A DNA stretch of 64,000 nucleotides from an uncultured Gemmatimonadales bacterium (GCA_963783305.1 CAWAMW010000017.1:288001-352000), one strand, 5' to 3'. Shown: positions 30,001-39,000, counted from the first letter of the stretch. Numbers are program-made.

Positions 30001-33000
30001 CATCCAGAAATAGAAGAGCAGCCCTACGATCTGCCCCAACCCGCCCAGGACCACCACCCACGCCAGGAGCCTCGAGTCCACCCACGCCCGACCCGCCTCC
30101 GCCAGGAACCGGCTCAGCGTGGCGATGAAGAGGATCCAGTACGCCGCCGCGGCGCGCCCGGGCGAGTACCGCGTGTCGTCCTTCGCCGCCCGCGGAAACA
30201 GCCAGAGCGCCACACCCAGAATCAGGAACATGACGAAGCCGATGAGCACGGCGTGGGCGTGCGCGGACACCAGGTTCGGGTGGGGATAGCGCCCCAGAAG
30301 CTCCCGCTGCACCACCAGCCAGAACCCGAGCACCAGACCGACGGCCAGGAACCCGATGCCCGTCTTGATAAACCTGCGGACCAGCGTGTACATGTCTCGC
30401 TCTCCTCATTCGCGCAGCACCAGCTCCCGCCGGGCCGGATCGTACGAGACCAGAACGACCTGCCCCGGCGAAACGTCAACGGTTCGCCGTAACAGTAGTC
30501 GTTCCGGCACCGTTTCCGCCCAATTTCCCGCATTCTGGGCGGCGGAGTCCGGCGCCTCACCCATCCGGGAGAACTCCACCACGACCTCGTGGCGGCCAAC
30601 CGGCAGAGCGATCGACTCGAACACGTAGAGAGGGCGATCCCCCCGCGCACCTGCGCCTGCTACGGTGGAACGGAGCCGGAGCTCGCCGTTTACCCTCACG
30701 ACGAGGGCGTAGCTCGCCACGCGACCCTCGCAGACCACGTCCCGCCGCATGTGGATCGGCAGCGCTTCCTTCTCCTCCTCGGTGAGCCGCAGACACTCCT
30801 CCACCAGCGGCACCCGGGCCCGCCAGGCCAACCGCAGCGAAGGGTCCACCGCGGATTCCCGCGCGTACTCGAAGCGCGTCCCGGCTCCCACCGCGGCAAG
30901 GACCGCCAGCGCGAACGCCGCCCCCACGACCCCACGCACCATCCGAGCGCTCACCACCGCCGCTCCCTCACCGCGGTCGCCTCACCGGCACTCGGGTCCT
31001 CCCCGCCGGGTCCCGGCGTATCGCATTCCGCGATCAGGTCGATATCAAGCTCCGCCTCCGCCACACTCTCGATCCGCGCCACAGCCCGCCGGAACGCCTC
31101 AAGCTGCGCCCGCAACTGCACCTCCTCGCCCCAGGCGCGGTTCACCAGCCGCACTCGCCGCCGGTCCACGCGCTCCTGCAGCTCCGCCTCGCGGTCATGG
31201 AAAAGACGCTGCTCCAGCCACTTCGATCCCTCCCGATTCCAGCAGTCCCGCTCAGGGCACGCCACCACCAGGACCCCGCCCGCCCCCGACCTCACCAGGT
31301 ACTCCACCACCGACGTGTGGAGATTGCCAGCGCACGTCACCAGGTACACTGCCGCGCCGGCCACCGTCGCGGCAGAACCTGTGGCGCTTCGATCGCACCC
31401 GATCACCACCACATCCCCACGCGTCGGCGACTCGCGAGCCACGAACGCTTTCACCTCCGCCATCTGATCCCGACCGGTACGGCCAGCCGGACCGACACCC
31501 ATGGGGGCACAGGAGCCGGCGCAGATGCCGCAGCTGACGCACAGATCGGGGTCGACGCGCGCCACCAGCGCCGAACGGCCGTCGTCTCCACCTCGCTGCA
31601 CCATGGCTATGGCCTCGTAGGGACAGTCCTCGTAGCACTGCTCGCACCCAGTGCACAGCCGCTCGTCCACGAACGACGGCGCCGGCGCCGATTCCGCCTT
31701 CGGACGGACCAGCCACGGCAACCCCAGGAGCGGCAGCGCCAGCGCTATGCCCCCGACCCACACCGACCCTGCGGGCAGACCCTCCGTCAGCGGCAGCCAG
31801 AAAGCATAGAAGAGATCCAGCTGGGCGCGGAGCGGCTGGCTCAGCAGCTCCGCCTCCCCTGTGATGGCCACCGGCCAGACCACCGACGCCCCCACGAGCA
31901 GCGCCAGCAGACCGTACCTCAGCCCCTTCGGCGGAAGCAGCGTCGGCCGCGCCACGCGCGACACGTGCAGCCACAGGACCAGTCCCATCCCCACCGGCAG
32001 CGCGATGTGCAGGAACAGGTTGAGGAAGAAGAACGCCGCCGGCACCGGCCGGTCCCCCACGAATGTCCGACCGATCGGTTCGCTGAAGATCGGCAGCGCA
32101 TCCATCAGTCGCGCTCCCTCCACCGCCAGTAGCTGCGCCTGCGTGTCCCATACCATCACGTAGCCCGTCCACCCAGACACCAGCACCACCAACAGCAGCA
32201 CCAGGCCACTCACCCACGCCAGCGCTCGCGGACCCCAACTGCGACCCTGCGCGAACATCCGGAATGCATGCACCACGATCGCTATCACCGCCACGTCCGA
32301 CCCGTAGCGGTGGAGCGTTCGGATCCACCGCCCCAGCCACGCCTGCTCCGTGATCCTCGCCACCGACTCGTATGGCGCCCCGATCCGGTAAAACAACAGC
32401 AGGTATGCGCCCGTCAGAAGCAGCACCACCAACAGACCCGCCACGATGGCCCCGCTCGCGTACAGTGGGTTCCACCGAGACCCGTACACACGGTCCATCC
32501 ACCGGTCCACCCACCGGAGCGCCCGTAGCGCCGTCCGCTGGAGCGCCGCCGCGATGCCGCTCATGCCGCCCCTGGCCTGGTTTCCATTTCTGCCATCGTC
32601 TCCATGGCTTCTGCCTGCGAGGAGCCCGCTGCCCCCTACCTTCTTGCTTTTCGCAGTTTATCATAGCAATATGACAAATGCAACGTCACCCTGCCCCCCG
32701 ACACCCATGCTCTCCGCCACCGCCGCCTACGCGCTCCGGGCCATGATCCACCTCGCCGCCCGCGAGGGAGAGGGTCCCGTGCGGGTGGACGATGTGGCCG
32801 AGGCGCTGGGCGTGCCCAGGAACTACCTGTCGAAGGTGCTGCACGCCCTGGTGAAGGACGGGACGCTGCGATCGCTCCGGGGGCCGAATGGGGGGTTCGA
32901 GCTGGCGGTCCCGTCGTCGTCGCTGACGCTGTTCGACGTGGTGCGTCCGTTCGAGGAGATGGAGTCACGGCGAATGTGCCTGCTGGGAGGCGCGTGCGAC

Positions 33001-36000: not shown

Positions 36001-39000
36001 GGGCGGCGGGAGGGGGGCGCTCCACGCTCGATGCGCCGACGCGCTCCGCGGCCGAGCTGCCACGCCTCCACCTGGCTGCGCCGGCGCTCGACCTCGTGGA
36101 CCAGCACGGTGAGCCGTTCACCCTCGAACGGCTCCGGGGGGAGCCCGCCCTCGTTACATTCGCCTTCGCTCACTGTGAGACGGTTTGCCCCGTGCTGGTT
36201 CGGGAGGTGCGGCGTGCGCGGCAACTCGCCCTGGATCGCGGCCTCGCGCCACCCGCCGTCGTGGTGGTCACGGTCGACCCGTGGCGCGACACGCCGCCGC
36301 GGCTTCCACACATCGCCAAGGGTTGGGAGCTGGCGGAAGACGAGTGGGTGCTCAGCGCCCAGCCGGACGCAGTACGGGCGACCCTCGAACGGTGGAATGT
36401 TCCCACCACGAGGGACGCCCGTACCGGAGAAATCACGCATCCGGCCATCGTCTATGTTCTGGACCGGGAAGGGCGGGTCGCGTTCGCCACCACCGGGGGC
36501 GGCGAGCACGCCCTCGCCCTCCTCGCGCGGATCAACTAGCGCATCGGGTTCGCATCCCGAGAGGTCCGCTCGTACCCCTCACGGACGTGCGGGCGCATGG
36601 TGTCGTAGTCGTTTTCGTGGTCGGTGTCTTTCCAACCCGCACGAAGCTCCGGCTCCACCTCATCGAAGGAGCGGCCGCGATAGTCGGGGTTCCGACCCGC
36701 CGCGTGGCCCACGCCGTAGCCGACCCGCGCCTGGTCGTAGTCCAGGTCCGAGCCGACCTCGCGGTGATGGGCACGATAATGCTCTTCGTGGTCACCCATG
36801 TCCTCCAGCGCGCGACCCGCCTTCTCACCGGCCCACCAGCCACCGGCCGCACCGGCGATCCCGCCAATGATCGTGCCGATGGGACCCGCGGCCGAACCGA
36901 TCCCCGCGCCCGCCAGCACGCCGCCGATGCCACCAGCGGCCTCGCCTGCCTGTTCGCCCGCGCCCGGGTTCTCGTCGCGTACGTCGTCCGAAAGATGTTC
37001 TCGGTCCGTCATGGTTCACCTCTGTCTCAGGAGAAGAAAACTGCCTTCCGTGAACGGATGTTTGTGCAGGATGCACGCCACGAATCGCGCGCCGCGTTTC
37101 AAGGTTTTCCCCACAGACGACCCGCTCCCCCGACCGTATCGTGGTTCCAATCACCACGGTCACGAAGGAGACAGCCCATGGACGAGAAGGAGTTCGACCT
37201 GACCCTGACGCTCGGGGAGGGGATGCAGTTCGACGCTGCGTTCGATGGCGAGAAGATGGCGAACCTGCTCTTCGACGAGCCGGAGCCGGTGGGAGAGGAT
37301 GAGGGCCCCAACGCCGCGCGCGTCCTGGGGGCCGCCATCGGCAACTGTCTGAGCGCCAGCCTGCTTTTCTGCCTCCGGAAGGCCCGCGTGGACGTGGTGG
37401 GAATGCGCACGGAGGTGAAGGGCACGATCACGCGGAACGAGAGTGGCCGGTTCCGGATCGGCAGGATTGCCGTGAAGGTGCTGACGGAGATCCCACCGGA
37501 AGATCAGAGCCGGGTGGACCGGTGTCTGAAGGTGTTCGAAGACTTCTGCATCGTGAGCGCGAGTGTGCGGCAGGGGATCGAGATCGACGTCGAGGTGGAT
37601 GTCCTGAACCCCGGCTGACGGCCTCAGACCGCCTGACCGTTCTCCTCATCATAGCGGCGGATCGCGTCCTCGATGGCTTCGATGGCGCGGCCGCGGCCCG
37701 CCCAGCCGCCGGTGACGGTCTCCTTGCCCTCCAGCTCCTTGTACACGGCGAAGAAGTGGTCGATCTCGCGGAGCGTGTGAGGCGGAACGTCCTCCAGCTG
37801 GTGGTACTCGTCCATGTAGGGATCGGAGGTGGGCACAGCCAGGATCTTGTGGTCGATGCCCTTCTCGTCCCGCATCTGGAACATCCCCACCGGGCGGACC
37901 TCGATGAGACAGCCCGGCACCGTCGGCACCGTAATCAGGATGAGCACGTCGAGCGCGTCGCCGTCCTCCGCCAGCGTCCGGGGTACGAAGCCGTAGTCGC
38001 CGGGGTAGTGGACGGCGCTGTAGAGCAGCCGATCGAACTTCAGGACGCCGGAGTCCTTGTCCACCTCGTACTTGTTCCGACTCCCGCCCGGGATTTCGAC
38101 ATAGGCGTTGAGGAGGTCGGGCGGCGCGGGTCCAGCCTTGAGGTCGTGGAGCGGATGCATCAGCGGCTCACATCACCCGGCGGAGCGCCTGCGTGGCGGT
38201 GGCCGTCGCCGCGCCGAACGCGAGGTGGGCCCCCAGCGCCTTGGCGTGGTCGGGGATCGAATGGGCCGTGGGCCCTGCGGACAGGCCCAGCAGCGGCACC
38301 ATGATCTCGTCGCCGAGCACCCATAGCGCGGTGCCATAGCCCAGCCCGGCCACCAGGTCGGGCACATCCGCGGCGGGGCGGAGCGCGCCGTAGAGGCCAC
38401 CGACGAGGACTCCGTAGCCCCAGTGGACCGCCTGGCCCAACTTCTCCTTCGCTTTCTCGTCCGGCTCGTCCCCCGTGGCCGTGTGGTACGCGATTCGGCC
38501 GAGCGCGGCCGTCGCCGCCTCGTCCTCACGGGCCTGACGACCGGAGACCGCGATGTCGTCGAGGGCGTCCTGCCGCTCCACGATGTCCTCCTCGTCGGAA
38601 CCCTGTCCCTCTCCGTTGGAGAGCGCCTGCGACGCGCGGAAGAAAAGTCCCATGACTGCGAGCCCCGCCAGGCTGCCCAGCGCTCCGCGGAGCATTCCGT
38701 TCATGTGGTCACTGTCGATGCGGGCCATGGGGCGAGTCCTCCTGCGCGGGACGTGACGAAGCGAGCACTCCCTGCACTGAAGGAACCATGCCAGCATCGA
38801 ACATCGCCCATCGGCTTCTGCACCGAGCCTCAGGGGATCGAAGATCCAGAGTCGCTAGGCGCTGATCGATCTCAGGCCACGAGCCTCCACACCTGCGCGA
38901 CCATGAAGGTGACGACGATCCCCATGACCAGCGGCATGAGCGCCGCGACGGTCGTCCATTTCACGCTCCCCGTCTCCTTGTAGATCGTGTAGATCGTGGT

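Follow-up and report, generated by a model that had tools for sequence, protein, structure and literature searches.

The window, meaning the whole stretch of DNA analysed here, covers 64,000 nt from an uncultured Gemmatimonadales bacterium (GCA_963783305.1 CAWAMW010000017.1:288001-352000). It contains two divergent operons separated by a palindrome, with all genes lying where an earlier note on this DNA had placed them:

29247..29447, minus strand: DUF542/ScdA_N protein (PF04405 over cut-off), probably the final gene of the leftward operon
29462..29908, minus strand: small membrane protein with a HAHAH motif and a weak COX1-like match (PF00115, 36.1 bits); accessory, not core
29938..30393, minus strand: second small membrane protein, HAHA motif (PF00115, 36.6 bits; in few of 80 loci); accessory
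30406..30957, minus strand: C-terminal domain of the cytochrome b protein as a separate gene (finger protein), matching the C-terminal extension of fused homologues
30951..32564, minus strand: fusion of cytochrome b, 2x[4Fe-4S] ferredoxin and MvhD-like domain, 537 aa (Cytochrome_B, Fer4 and FlpD over cut-offs)
32658..32677, no strand: palindrome TTATCAT-N6-ATGA(C/T)AA, likely an Rrf2 operator, from intergenic conservation
32707..33132, plus strand: Rrf2 regulator, Cys-x5-Cys-x5-Cys-x2-His (PF02082 and TIGR00738 over cut-off)
33147..33308, plus strand: single-helix small subunit upstream of subunit II, presumably IIa-like; position kept in GTDB and metagenome loci
33320..33919, plus strand: eNOR subunit II (PF00116), complete CuA motif, Glu22
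33912..35489, plus strand: eNOR subunit I, with His68, His229, His278, His279, His383, His385, Gln233, Tyr244, Ser306 and His309
35413..35637, plus strand: final helix of subunit I as a gene of its own, with an uncertain start codon; 49% identical to the C-terminal end of subunit I in Defluviimonas and conserved in place
35622..36539, plus strand: Sco copper chaperone (PF02630) with a two-helix N-terminal extension

Homologues of two accessory genes recur in Thermus: the DUF542/ScdA_N gene adjoins the eNOR operon there, and the HAHAH protein, seen in few of the 80 loci, is encoded within it. The Sco protein has Cys185-x3-Cys189 and His273, together with a conserved Cys54 in its extension (conservation over 49 rows).

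The genes at 33320..35489 encode a predicted member of the known eNOR family of nitric-oxide reductases, an assignment made in the earlier note and supported by published signatures (PMC11214002, PMC8756737) and by 84% identity to the enzyme of genome J028. Subunit I reads WGLGHSSQQIN, in which Gln233 aligns with ba3 Tyr237 at the cross-link site. The cross-link Tyr of O2 reductases, four residues past the CuB His, is absent here, with Gln in its place in the window and in 65/65 loci that reach the site; the exact HSSQQIN, which had been given for 15 of 15 loci, is found in 53 of these 65. The genome's own ba3 oxidase has HAIVY at this position. Tyr244, Ser306 and His309 match R. marinus Tyr256, Ser318 and His321 with exact spacing (offset -12), and the six His ligands of subunit I are present. 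In subunit II, Glu22 is the counterpart of R. marinus subunit II Glu21 and is invariant in 65 rows, as are the CuA residues His125, Cys160, Glu162, Cys164, His168 and Met171. The J028 enzyme is the sister of subunit I with 100/100 support, at 83.6% identity; the tree, which was built without the R. marinus sequence, supports the 10-row eNOR group at only 91/91. The J028 genome is scored eNOR=1 in Dataset S6 of PMC11214002, the residue signatures are those of its Dataset S1, and the Gln signature is described in PMC8756737. According to the accessible sections of PMC11214002, eNOR has a distribution about as broad as those of cNOR and qNOR, produces N2O, and is reported from assays with artificial donors only. 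eNOR contains haem As, and the Rhodothermus enzyme, purified as two subunits, turns over with TMPD/ascorbate.

Elsewhere the genome encodes a true ba3 oxidase, a NorCB-like pair, a ctaA located with an A-type oxidase, and two ActD-bearing alternative complex III (ACIII) operons. NirK, reported earlier, scores over its cut-off; NosZ has no match over cut-off in this 96% complete genome.

The palindrome between the operons is likely an Rrf2 operator common to both. Its core, TCAT-N6-ATGA, recurs in 38/73 intergenic regions; no other site in the genome scores as well as 32658-32677, and 100 shuffles of the window gave 0 matches. A genome scan for a wider regulon gave three weaker sites, none of them at nirK or norC. 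The three Cys and the His of the regulator are invariant (45/45), and its gene is present in 44/80 loci; a second in-frame ATG, upstream at 32671, falls within the operator.

The protein at 30951-32564 is the sole PF00033 match of the genome, in agreement with the earlier note, which called it the only bc-type cytochrome b, and the previously described fusion to two [4Fe-4S] motifs and an MvhD/FlpD domain is borne out. Being the only cytochrome b gene carries little weight, since the two ACIII operons can oxidise quinol. The predicted structure adopts the fold of bc1/b6f cytochrome b helices A-F, ef loop included (Z 24.2, rmsd 2.6, 251 residues), with haem ligands His85, His99, His186 and His200. 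These are followed by a ferredoxin part (Cys304-314 and Cys342-352) and an MvhD-like part (Cys390, 411, 436, 441; PF02662 37 bits against a cut-off of 22.3), whose four Cys ligands make it a predicted [2Fe-2S] site. Among 138 diverse homologues, the near-invariance noted earlier holds for the haem His (138/138) and the ferredoxin Cys (137/138); all four MvhD Cys are kept in 118, and three of them in 137. Residues 289-501, spanning ferredoxin and MvhD, have their best profile match at HdrA2 564-774, the C-terminus of that model. No FAD domain is found in the 537-aa chain, which leaves no flavin-based bifurcation within it. The six helices are predicted to place the ferredoxin and MvhD domains on the cytoplasmic side. 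Rieske profiles match five genes in the genome, none near the locus, and the 80 loci show no conserved Rieske or c1/f neighbour. Outside the locus, two exported Rieske proteins (genes at C2:502064 and C2:502614) might act in trans.

The finger protein has one membrane helix, after which comes a beta-sandwich, predicted to be periplasmic, that bears a hairpin finger (model pLDDT 90). The finger reads Cys50-x11-Pro-x-His64-Met65-x5-Cys71 in the numbering of the 178-aa form; its Cys, Met and Cys are invariant across 65 rows, and the His-Met pair is missing from 17/105 long homologues. Its gene is immediately downstream of the cytochrome b gene in 79/80 loci. In one protein, P0252, a cytochrome c is fused behind the periplasmic domain, the sole case in 150 representatives. 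Foldseek returned no fold relatives at E<=0.001, and the best VIA match (Z 8.1) is to generic beta-sandwiches, which does not in itself establish a new fold; Atlas matches are hypothetical proteins. A predicted complex between subunit II and the finger protein scored 0.00, with no controls folded, and is given no weight for or against contact.

The full-length cytochrome b protein occurs in 36/150 order genomes, exactly the number counted before, and eNOR accompanies it in all 36; in Myxococcota (251 genomes), 26 of 28 carriers have eNOR. The head-to-head order described in the earlier note extends to 72/80 GTDB loci and is lineage-specific, as proteobacterial-type and most myxococcal operons are co-directional. 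Seven of the other eight loci have no upstream DNA, and the eighth, L056, has 10 kb without eNOR, yet eNOR elsewhere in its genome. To call the link fixed is an overstatement, because eNOR genes also occur with no cytochrome b protein nearby. The cytochrome b-Fe-S gene is not in the eNOR plasmids of Thermus and Thermomicrobium, and sco is also missing at those loci, a joint absence seen in the plasmid loci of two lineages. In proteobacterial-type operons the gene comes after haem o synthase and sco; cyoE is present in most of them and ctaA in 3/79 such loci. A paralogue fused to a BenC-like [2Fe-2S]/FAD/NAD module is often added, a module that normally moves electrons out of NADH. A relative of the cytochrome b-Fe-S protein is encoded in the cbb3/Rieske operons of genomes G316 and G294. 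No conserved cytoplasmic donor gene was found in the 80 GTDB loci. As read from gene co-occurrence, the functional tie of the cytochrome b protein with eNOR is well supported; the proposed partnership stands to that extent, and its quinol-oxidising or bifurcating form is left unsupported.

The quinone sites bear directly on that form. According to the accessible text of PMC7908018, quinone cannot bind where the glycine of the Qo site (Gly143 in yeast) gives way to a bulky side chain. Here this position is Leu146, in a register that is ungapped against b6 and chicken and ovine cytochrome b; the 138 homologues have a bulky residue in 135 cases (Leu, Val or Ile in 126), Ala in 2 and Gly in none, and Gly occurs in 1/80 GTDB rows. 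The Trp-Gly/Ala of helix cd1 has become Leu145-Leu146 and the PEWY-type motif LDLF, with the acid alone kept. Trp142 is retained in 6 and Pro271 in 1 of the 138. A register with Asp250 on Pro271 was ruled out by ungapped profile alignments. The Qi residues of bc1 (His201 and Asp228) are lost as well: the His site, position 205 here, is His in 0/138, and helix E has no conserved acid over 201-229; position 37, that of the haem ci Cys, is never Cys. A natural control is provided by G316 and G294, in which Trp-Ala and SDWY are intact in the Rieske-linked cytochrome b and the Fe-S-fused neighbour has a bulky residue. With key quinone-site residues lost, the cytochrome b is likely an electron wire. 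Several residues persist, namely Asp250 of the Qo motif (128 Asp, 9 Asn, 1 Ser), Tyr/Phe135 and Trp139-Asp140; in proteobacterial-type rows Asp-Trp is invariant (63/63) and a small Ser occupies the glycine site in 7/63. Because Asp250 is kept and some rows have a small residue at the glycine site, a remodelled quinone site may still exist. The choice of Asp, Asn or Ser without Glu at 250, preceding a predicted helix, would suit a residue that caps the helix better than one that accepts a proton.

The earlier note took the protein for a unit without a Rieske subunit that probably oxidises quinol or bifurcates, passing electrons of the quinone pool to eNOR. The complete cytochrome b fold with its ef loop and the conserved Asp250, Tyr/Phe135 and Trp139-Asp140 are consistent with such a unit, and Kao and Hunte suggest, in the accessible part of PMC4122944, that the Qo motif may serve other complexes. 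The bulky glycine site, the loss of Trp142, Pro271 and the Qi ligands, and the presumed helix cap at 250 argue against it; moreover, the locus encodes no high-potential acceptor, there is no flavin, the fused clusters are predicted to be cytoplasmic, and two ACIII operons are already there. We consider this role improbable.

Our preferred reading, to which we give a probability of roughly 0.4, is that the cytochrome b-Fe-S protein and the finger constitute a quinone-independent outward wire that matures or reductively activates the metal sites of eNOR. Electrons from a cytoplasmic donor (ferredoxin, or NAD(P)H via a partner) would enter the MvhD [2Fe-2S] cluster, pass through the two [4Fe-4S] clusters to haem bH and haem bL, and emerge at the periplasmic face, where Sco and the CuA subunit would receive reducing power or Cu(I) from the disulfide-clamped His-Met finger. 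For turnover, electrons would run from ACIII through cytochrome c to CuA, and a single Fe-S protein of the Rrf2 type would regulate the two operons via the one operator. Genes, motifs, co-occurrence and residue losses are observed, topology and fold are predicted, and direction, donor, acceptor and purpose we infer. For the wire speak the degenerate Qo and Qi sites, the natural control in G316/G294, the place of the gene after haem o synthase and sco in proteobacterial-type operons, the joint absence of cytochrome b and sco in Thermus and Thermomicrobium, the two-subunit Rhodothermus enzyme with its TMPD/ascorbate turnover, the two ACIII operons here, the NADH-type module on the proteobacterial paralogue and the cytoplasmic Fe-S side. 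Maturation as its purpose has a precedent in CcoG, an Fe-S membrane cupric reductase in cbb3 assembly. To spend two haems and three clusters on such a purpose is costly, however, and the lack of a conserved donor gene in the 80 loci and of His-Met in 17/105 homologues also weighs against it, while the sister form in a respiratory Rieske/cbb3 operon of G316/G294 points to bulk electron flow. The kept Asp250 and the two exported Rieske proteins also count against the wire.

A rival reading makes the same outward wire the turnover donor of eNOR: cytoplasmic electrons would cross the membrane and arrive at CuA by way of the His-Met finger, without recourse to the quinone pool and with separation of charge. 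The same residue and topology evidence applies, and near one-to-one co-occurrence, the common operator, the NAD(P)H-linked paralogue in some operons and the P0252 cytochrome c fusion would all fit. Against this, eNOR genes exist with no cytochrome b nearby, purified eNOR has two subunits, the cytochrome c fusion is found in just 1/150, and Gemmatimonadota-type loci have no conserved donor gene. A turnover donor seems unlikely, if slightly likelier than a quinol oxidase. It would imply a quinone-free, charge-separating branch of NO respiration in several phyla, built on a cytochrome b that has lost both quinone sites and the Rieske partner and running from ferredoxin or NAD(P)H through three Fe-S clusters, two haems and the finger directly to CuA, an outcome that we rate no higher.

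The remaining alternatives give the protein a different direction or client. As a redox partner of haem a synthesis for eNOR at low O2, or a membrane redox sensor of eNOR expression, it would suit the haem As of eNOR, the distribution of cyoE and ctaA in proteobacterial-type operons and the Rrf2 regulator between the operons. Neither function accounts for the conserved periplasmic finger, and the genome's ctaA accompanies an A-type oxidase; partnership with haem a synthase was ranked low, a ctaA-like gene being near in only 8/80 GTDB loci. These functions appear slightly less probable than quinol oxidation. Least probable, by a small margin, is inward flow, in which NO reduction or quinol oxidation pushes electrons uphill via the haems to NAD+ or ferredoxin, as a 2026 preprint proposes for the FAD/NAD paralogue (bioRxiv 10.64898/2026.01.22.701106). 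The two-cytochrome Rieske operons of G316/G294 fit low-potential electron export of this kind, but the window has no FAD/NAD paralogue, Rieske gene or intact-Qo cytochrome b partner, and so no evident driving reaction.

Almost all eNORs in the samples of Gemmatimonadota, Myxococcota and Acidobacteriota have the cytochrome b protein with them, which makes it the obvious missing part. It may be required to express active eNOR in another host, and cultured carriers, Defluviimonas and Magnetospirillum among them, allow a direct test.

The eNOR family (2008/2024; Murali et al. 2024, PMC11214002), the fusion (2014) and the Ferrigenium pairing (2026 preprint, the partial anticipation that the earlier note acknowledged) are already in print. 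The window enzyme shares with the family the cross-link Gln, the Tyr/Ser/His channel residues, the subunit II Glu near 21 and CuA; it differs in having the last subunit I helix as a separate gene, a Sco with a two-helix extension and a locus without ctaA/ctaB. Longimicrobiales members are counted in Dataset S6 of PMC11214002, whose accessible sections mention no cytochrome b partner. The architecture of cytochrome b, 4Fe-4S and MvhD, with no Rieske in the cluster, is that of the PDWF-FeS clade in the accessible part of Kao and Hunte 2014 (PMC4122944), with members in Magnetospirillum AMB-1 and Turneriella and an FAD-linked sister form in Alicycliphilus. That part gives no eNOR link, periplasmic domain or function for the fusion, and the accessible text of PMC5600118 has nothing on it. 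The window motif is LDLF against PDWF of the clade, and proteobacterial-type rows read xDWF, in a comparison that did not include the AMB-1 and Turneriella sequences. Ferrigenium straubiae carries eNOR II, I, sco and cytochrome b-[Fe-S] in one cluster whose proteins are detected in the proteome. The cluster also has a second cytochrome b, of the FAD/NAD-fused form, and genes for haem o synthase and a scaffold; its authors regard the pair as unusual and a Ferrigenium marker, and propose quinol:NAD+ reduction (bioRxiv 10.64898/2026.01.22.701106). As the pair is widespread, its value as a Ferrigenium-specific marker is removed.

The C-terminal module resembles HdrA-MvhD and QmoB in having 2x[4Fe-4S] followed by MvhD; here it lacks an FAD domain and is anchored on a cytochrome b. 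CcoG/FixG offers a functional analogy, as an Fe-S membrane protein encoded with a haem-copper enzyme and supplying reducing power for assembly, but no CcoG profile matches here, and CcoG faces the cytoplasm, whereas this protein has a b-haem pair. With bc1/b6f cytochrome b it has in common the helix A-F fold and four haem His at bc1 spacing; in contrast to these, its locus is free of Rieske and c1/f genes, and the protein itself lacks the haem ci Cys, has lost intact Qo and Qi sites and carries an Fe-S tail predicted to be cytoplasmic. The complex III cytochrome b scaffold has been reused here, likely as a plain wire.

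The locus consists of two divergent operons within the window, and its genes, motifs and neighbourhood are, overall, as the earlier note described them. Close homologues of these genes carry the names Gemmatimonadota and Longimicrobiales, from which the taxon of the host is deduced.

Genes of the two operons, in operon order
Rightward (+): Rrf2 regulator
33147-33308 (+): one-helix gene
33320-33919 (+): subunit II
33912-35489 (+): subunit I
Rightward (+): 74-codon gene
35622-36539 (+): Sco
30951-32564 (-): 537-aa cytochrome b fusion
30406-30957 (-): 183-codon ORF (finger domain)
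Leftward (-): two small membrane proteins
Leftward (-): DUF542

The 74-codon gene aligns with the C-terminus of Defluviimonas subunit I and, by this match, is a split-off helix of subunit I. Sco carries an N-terminal extension (35622-35900; WW..ALW, CF..LP..GW and Cys54 conserved in 47/49 rows) that is not present in Defluviimonas Sco. A palindrome at 32658-32677, a probable operator, is kept in 38 of 73 intergenic regions; among sites of this kind in the host genome it ranks first. Rrf2 keeps three Cys and one His in 45/45 rows, in a spacing similar to that of IscR. At 2.3 kb from the locus, a FeoB-like gene and a DtxR/FeoA-like regulator (38872-42170, -) are recognizable by eye. GC content falls from about 0.69 to 0.54-0.58 at 58001-64000, suggesting a foreign insert.

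In the alignment to Aquifex and Thermus ba3 oxidases, subunit I places Gln where the cross-link Tyr stands, a Gln described as an eNOR signature (PMC8756737). This residue is kept in all 65 loci reaching the motif (of 80 GTDB loci), 53 of them in the HSSQQIN form. The R. marinus eNOR residues Q245, Y256, S318, H321 and E(II)21 (Dataset S1 of Murali 2024, PMC11214002) correspond to Q233, Y244, S306, H309 and E22. Subunit I shares 83.6% identity with its counterpart in genome J028 (locus L048), a genome scored eNOR=1 in Dataset S6 of the same paper. The assignment of subunits I and II to eNOR is secure at the level of sequence, and NO reduction is the predicted activity; this part of the earlier interpretation stands, and the quinol-oxidase part is not supported.

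The cytochrome b protein model (pLDDT 94.8) superposes on cytochrome b helices A-F, so that the ferredoxin and MvhD domains would face the cytoplasm close to haem bH, with the finger domain on the outer side. A bulky replacement of the conserved Qo glycine is reported to prevent quinone binding (PMC7908018). With the register set by profile alignments, 138 diverse homologues hold Leu, Val or Ile (126), Met, Thr, Phe or His (10) or Ala (2) at this site. Trp142 is kept in 6/138 rows, Pro271 in 1/138, and Trp273, given as 96% conserved in cytochrome b in the literature, in 50/138; the Qi His is found in none of the 138, and helix E is without a conserved acid. Exceptions at the glycine site are Ser in 7 of 63 proteobacterial-type rows, where Asp-Trp is invariant, and Gly in 1 of 80 GTDB rows. 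Being the only PF00033 gene is insufficient to make the protein the quinol oxidase, since ActD, ActC and ActB-like genes occur in two operons of the host; with both quinone sites degenerate, quinol oxidation appears improbable.

Related genes in other loci
L164, G316:C1:241500-261000: Rieske/paired cytochrome b operon
L165, G294:C1:4317000-4336500: Rieske/paired cytochrome b operon
L162:11678-14002; L137:4303-6282 (-): fusion of cytochrome b with a [2Fe-2S]/FAD/NAD module, within eNOR clusters
L162:14738-16252 (-); L137:11981-13399; L166:12935-14356 (-); others: degenerate subunit I paralogue, WxGGHxLQF

In genomes G316 and G294, a cbb3-type oxidase is followed by a Rieske gene, two cytochrome b genes and a free MvhD gene. 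The first cytochrome b has Trp-Ala and SDWY intact and both bH His missing; the second is a four-His cytochrome b-2[4Fe-4S] ferredoxin with a bulky residue at the Qo glycine site. The arrangement suggests an asymmetric pair and serves as a control for quinone-site loss in the Fe-S-fused form. The FAD/NAD-fused cytochrome b has Val or Thr at the glycine site in 9/9 rows.

ORF 30406-30957 is a part of the system that the earlier note overlooked. It matches the C-terminal extension of fused cytochrome b homologues, of which 105 of 150 representatives are longer than 600 aa, and lies directly after the cytochrome b gene in 79/80 loci. Its predicted structure comprises a single helix and a beta-sandwich, together with a long hairpin whose tip carries His-Met flanked by two Cys. 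Among the 105 long forms, 52 show the strict Cys-Pro-His-Met-Cys pattern, 36 have His-Met otherwise and 17 have no His-Met.

Co-occurrence is given as bare counts, without a statistic, over genomes that include kin and are not independent. In 150 evenly drawn genomes of the order, the cytochrome b protein occurs in 36, all within the 38 with an eNOR-level subunit I (>70% identity; nine more matching only near 33%, the ba3 level, are excluded); the two additional eNOR genes are at contig ends. Among 251 Myxococcota genomes, 28 carry the protein, 26 with eNOR, which in every case lies only a few kb away on one contig, and the two remaining carriers are close to contig edges. The 201 Acidobacteriota include four with both and two with a distant form and no eNOR. 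Gln-type subunit I is reached in 39 of 79 metagenome loci of a distant clade, most others being short; the usual order (small gene, II, I, cyoE, sco, cytochrome b, hemerythrin) recurs on a Defluviimonas plasmid. In three similar loci (L154-L156, 12-16 kb), only a degenerate subunit I paralogue adjoins cytochrome b. The WxGGHxLQF paralogue, present beside many proteobacterial-type eNOR operons, forms a long branch inside the eNOR group and is possibly the 'scaffold' gene of a 2026 preprint (bioRxiv 10.64898/2026.01.22.701106).

Subunit I has matches at 46-51% identity on ten Thermus thermophilus plasmids and one Thermomicrobium plasmid. Within the plasmid sequences, the cytochrome b protein was matched by the Defluviimonas plasmid alone and by none of these eleven, and "fixed", the earlier word for the pairing, is too strong. 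The three of the eleven inspected at the locus show HGAQQVN and no sco nearby. In two Thermus plasmids (L083, L084), the eNOR-type operon includes Rrf2, DUF542 and a gene homologous to 29462-29908, and adjoins nitrite reductase or multicopper oxidase genes.

Besides eNOR, the host encodes three A-type oxidases, one true ba3, a NorCB-like pair and NirK; NosZ gave no match over the cut-off in the genome, which is 96% complete. The pair, a NorC-like dihaem cytochrome with a NorB-like subunit (HLWVEG; L170:7683-9885, G000:C17 near 406000), is a second NOR-type pair named by likeness and may be cNOR or Murali's cNOR-related 'N2O red' (putative N2O-reductase) family. Host locus L168 (G000:C16:80000-99900) holds dsrA and qmoC over the cut-off, a QmoB/HdrA-like gene and, read by eye, dsrB-, dsrC-, sat- and aprA-like genes. 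This set indicates dissimilatory sulfur metabolism in an organism that has, apart from eNOR, five terminal oxidases or NO reductases. An Rnf-like cluster, seen by eye upstream of the true ba3 oxidase (L172:12484-17935, G000:C2 near 275000), is a possible source of reduced ferredoxin.

Because both quinone sites are degenerate, the simplest role of the cytochrome b protein would be a wire linking cytoplasmic Fe-S clusters with the periplasmic face; every step of electron flow is a proposal. Outward flow is favoured, since it would run downhill from ferredoxin-type clusters and a BenC-like NADH module is carried by the paralogue in proteobacterial-type operons; inward flow is improbable. The wire would serve maturation or activation of eNOR (probability roughly 0.4), because the gene is found alongside cyoE and sco and is absent from loci that lack sco, the finger has ligands of the Cu(I) type, and purified eNOR is reported to function as two subunits. 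On these same grounds a turnover electron donor, which the wire could also be, is less likely. Haem a or sensing roles are improbable.

In literature covering few subscription journals, no paper was found on cross-phylum coupling of this protein with eNOR, or on the finger domain, quinone-site losses or putative operator. The SI neighbourhood figure of PMC11214002 may show the cytochrome b gene, since a legend in its preprint version names R. marinus and AMB-1 neighbourhoods. The literature considered also includes PMC8879329, PMC6431628, PMC8267372, bioRxiv 10.1101/2021.10.15.464467 and PMC5600118, the passages of the last containing nothing about the fusion. The cytochrome b-Fe-S fusion was named by Kao and Hunte (PMC4122944), and its pairing with eNOR in Ferrigenium is reported in the 2026 preprint. 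In conclusion, the enzyme is of a known kind and its partner has been named but not characterised; the form of the system found here is divergent and split.
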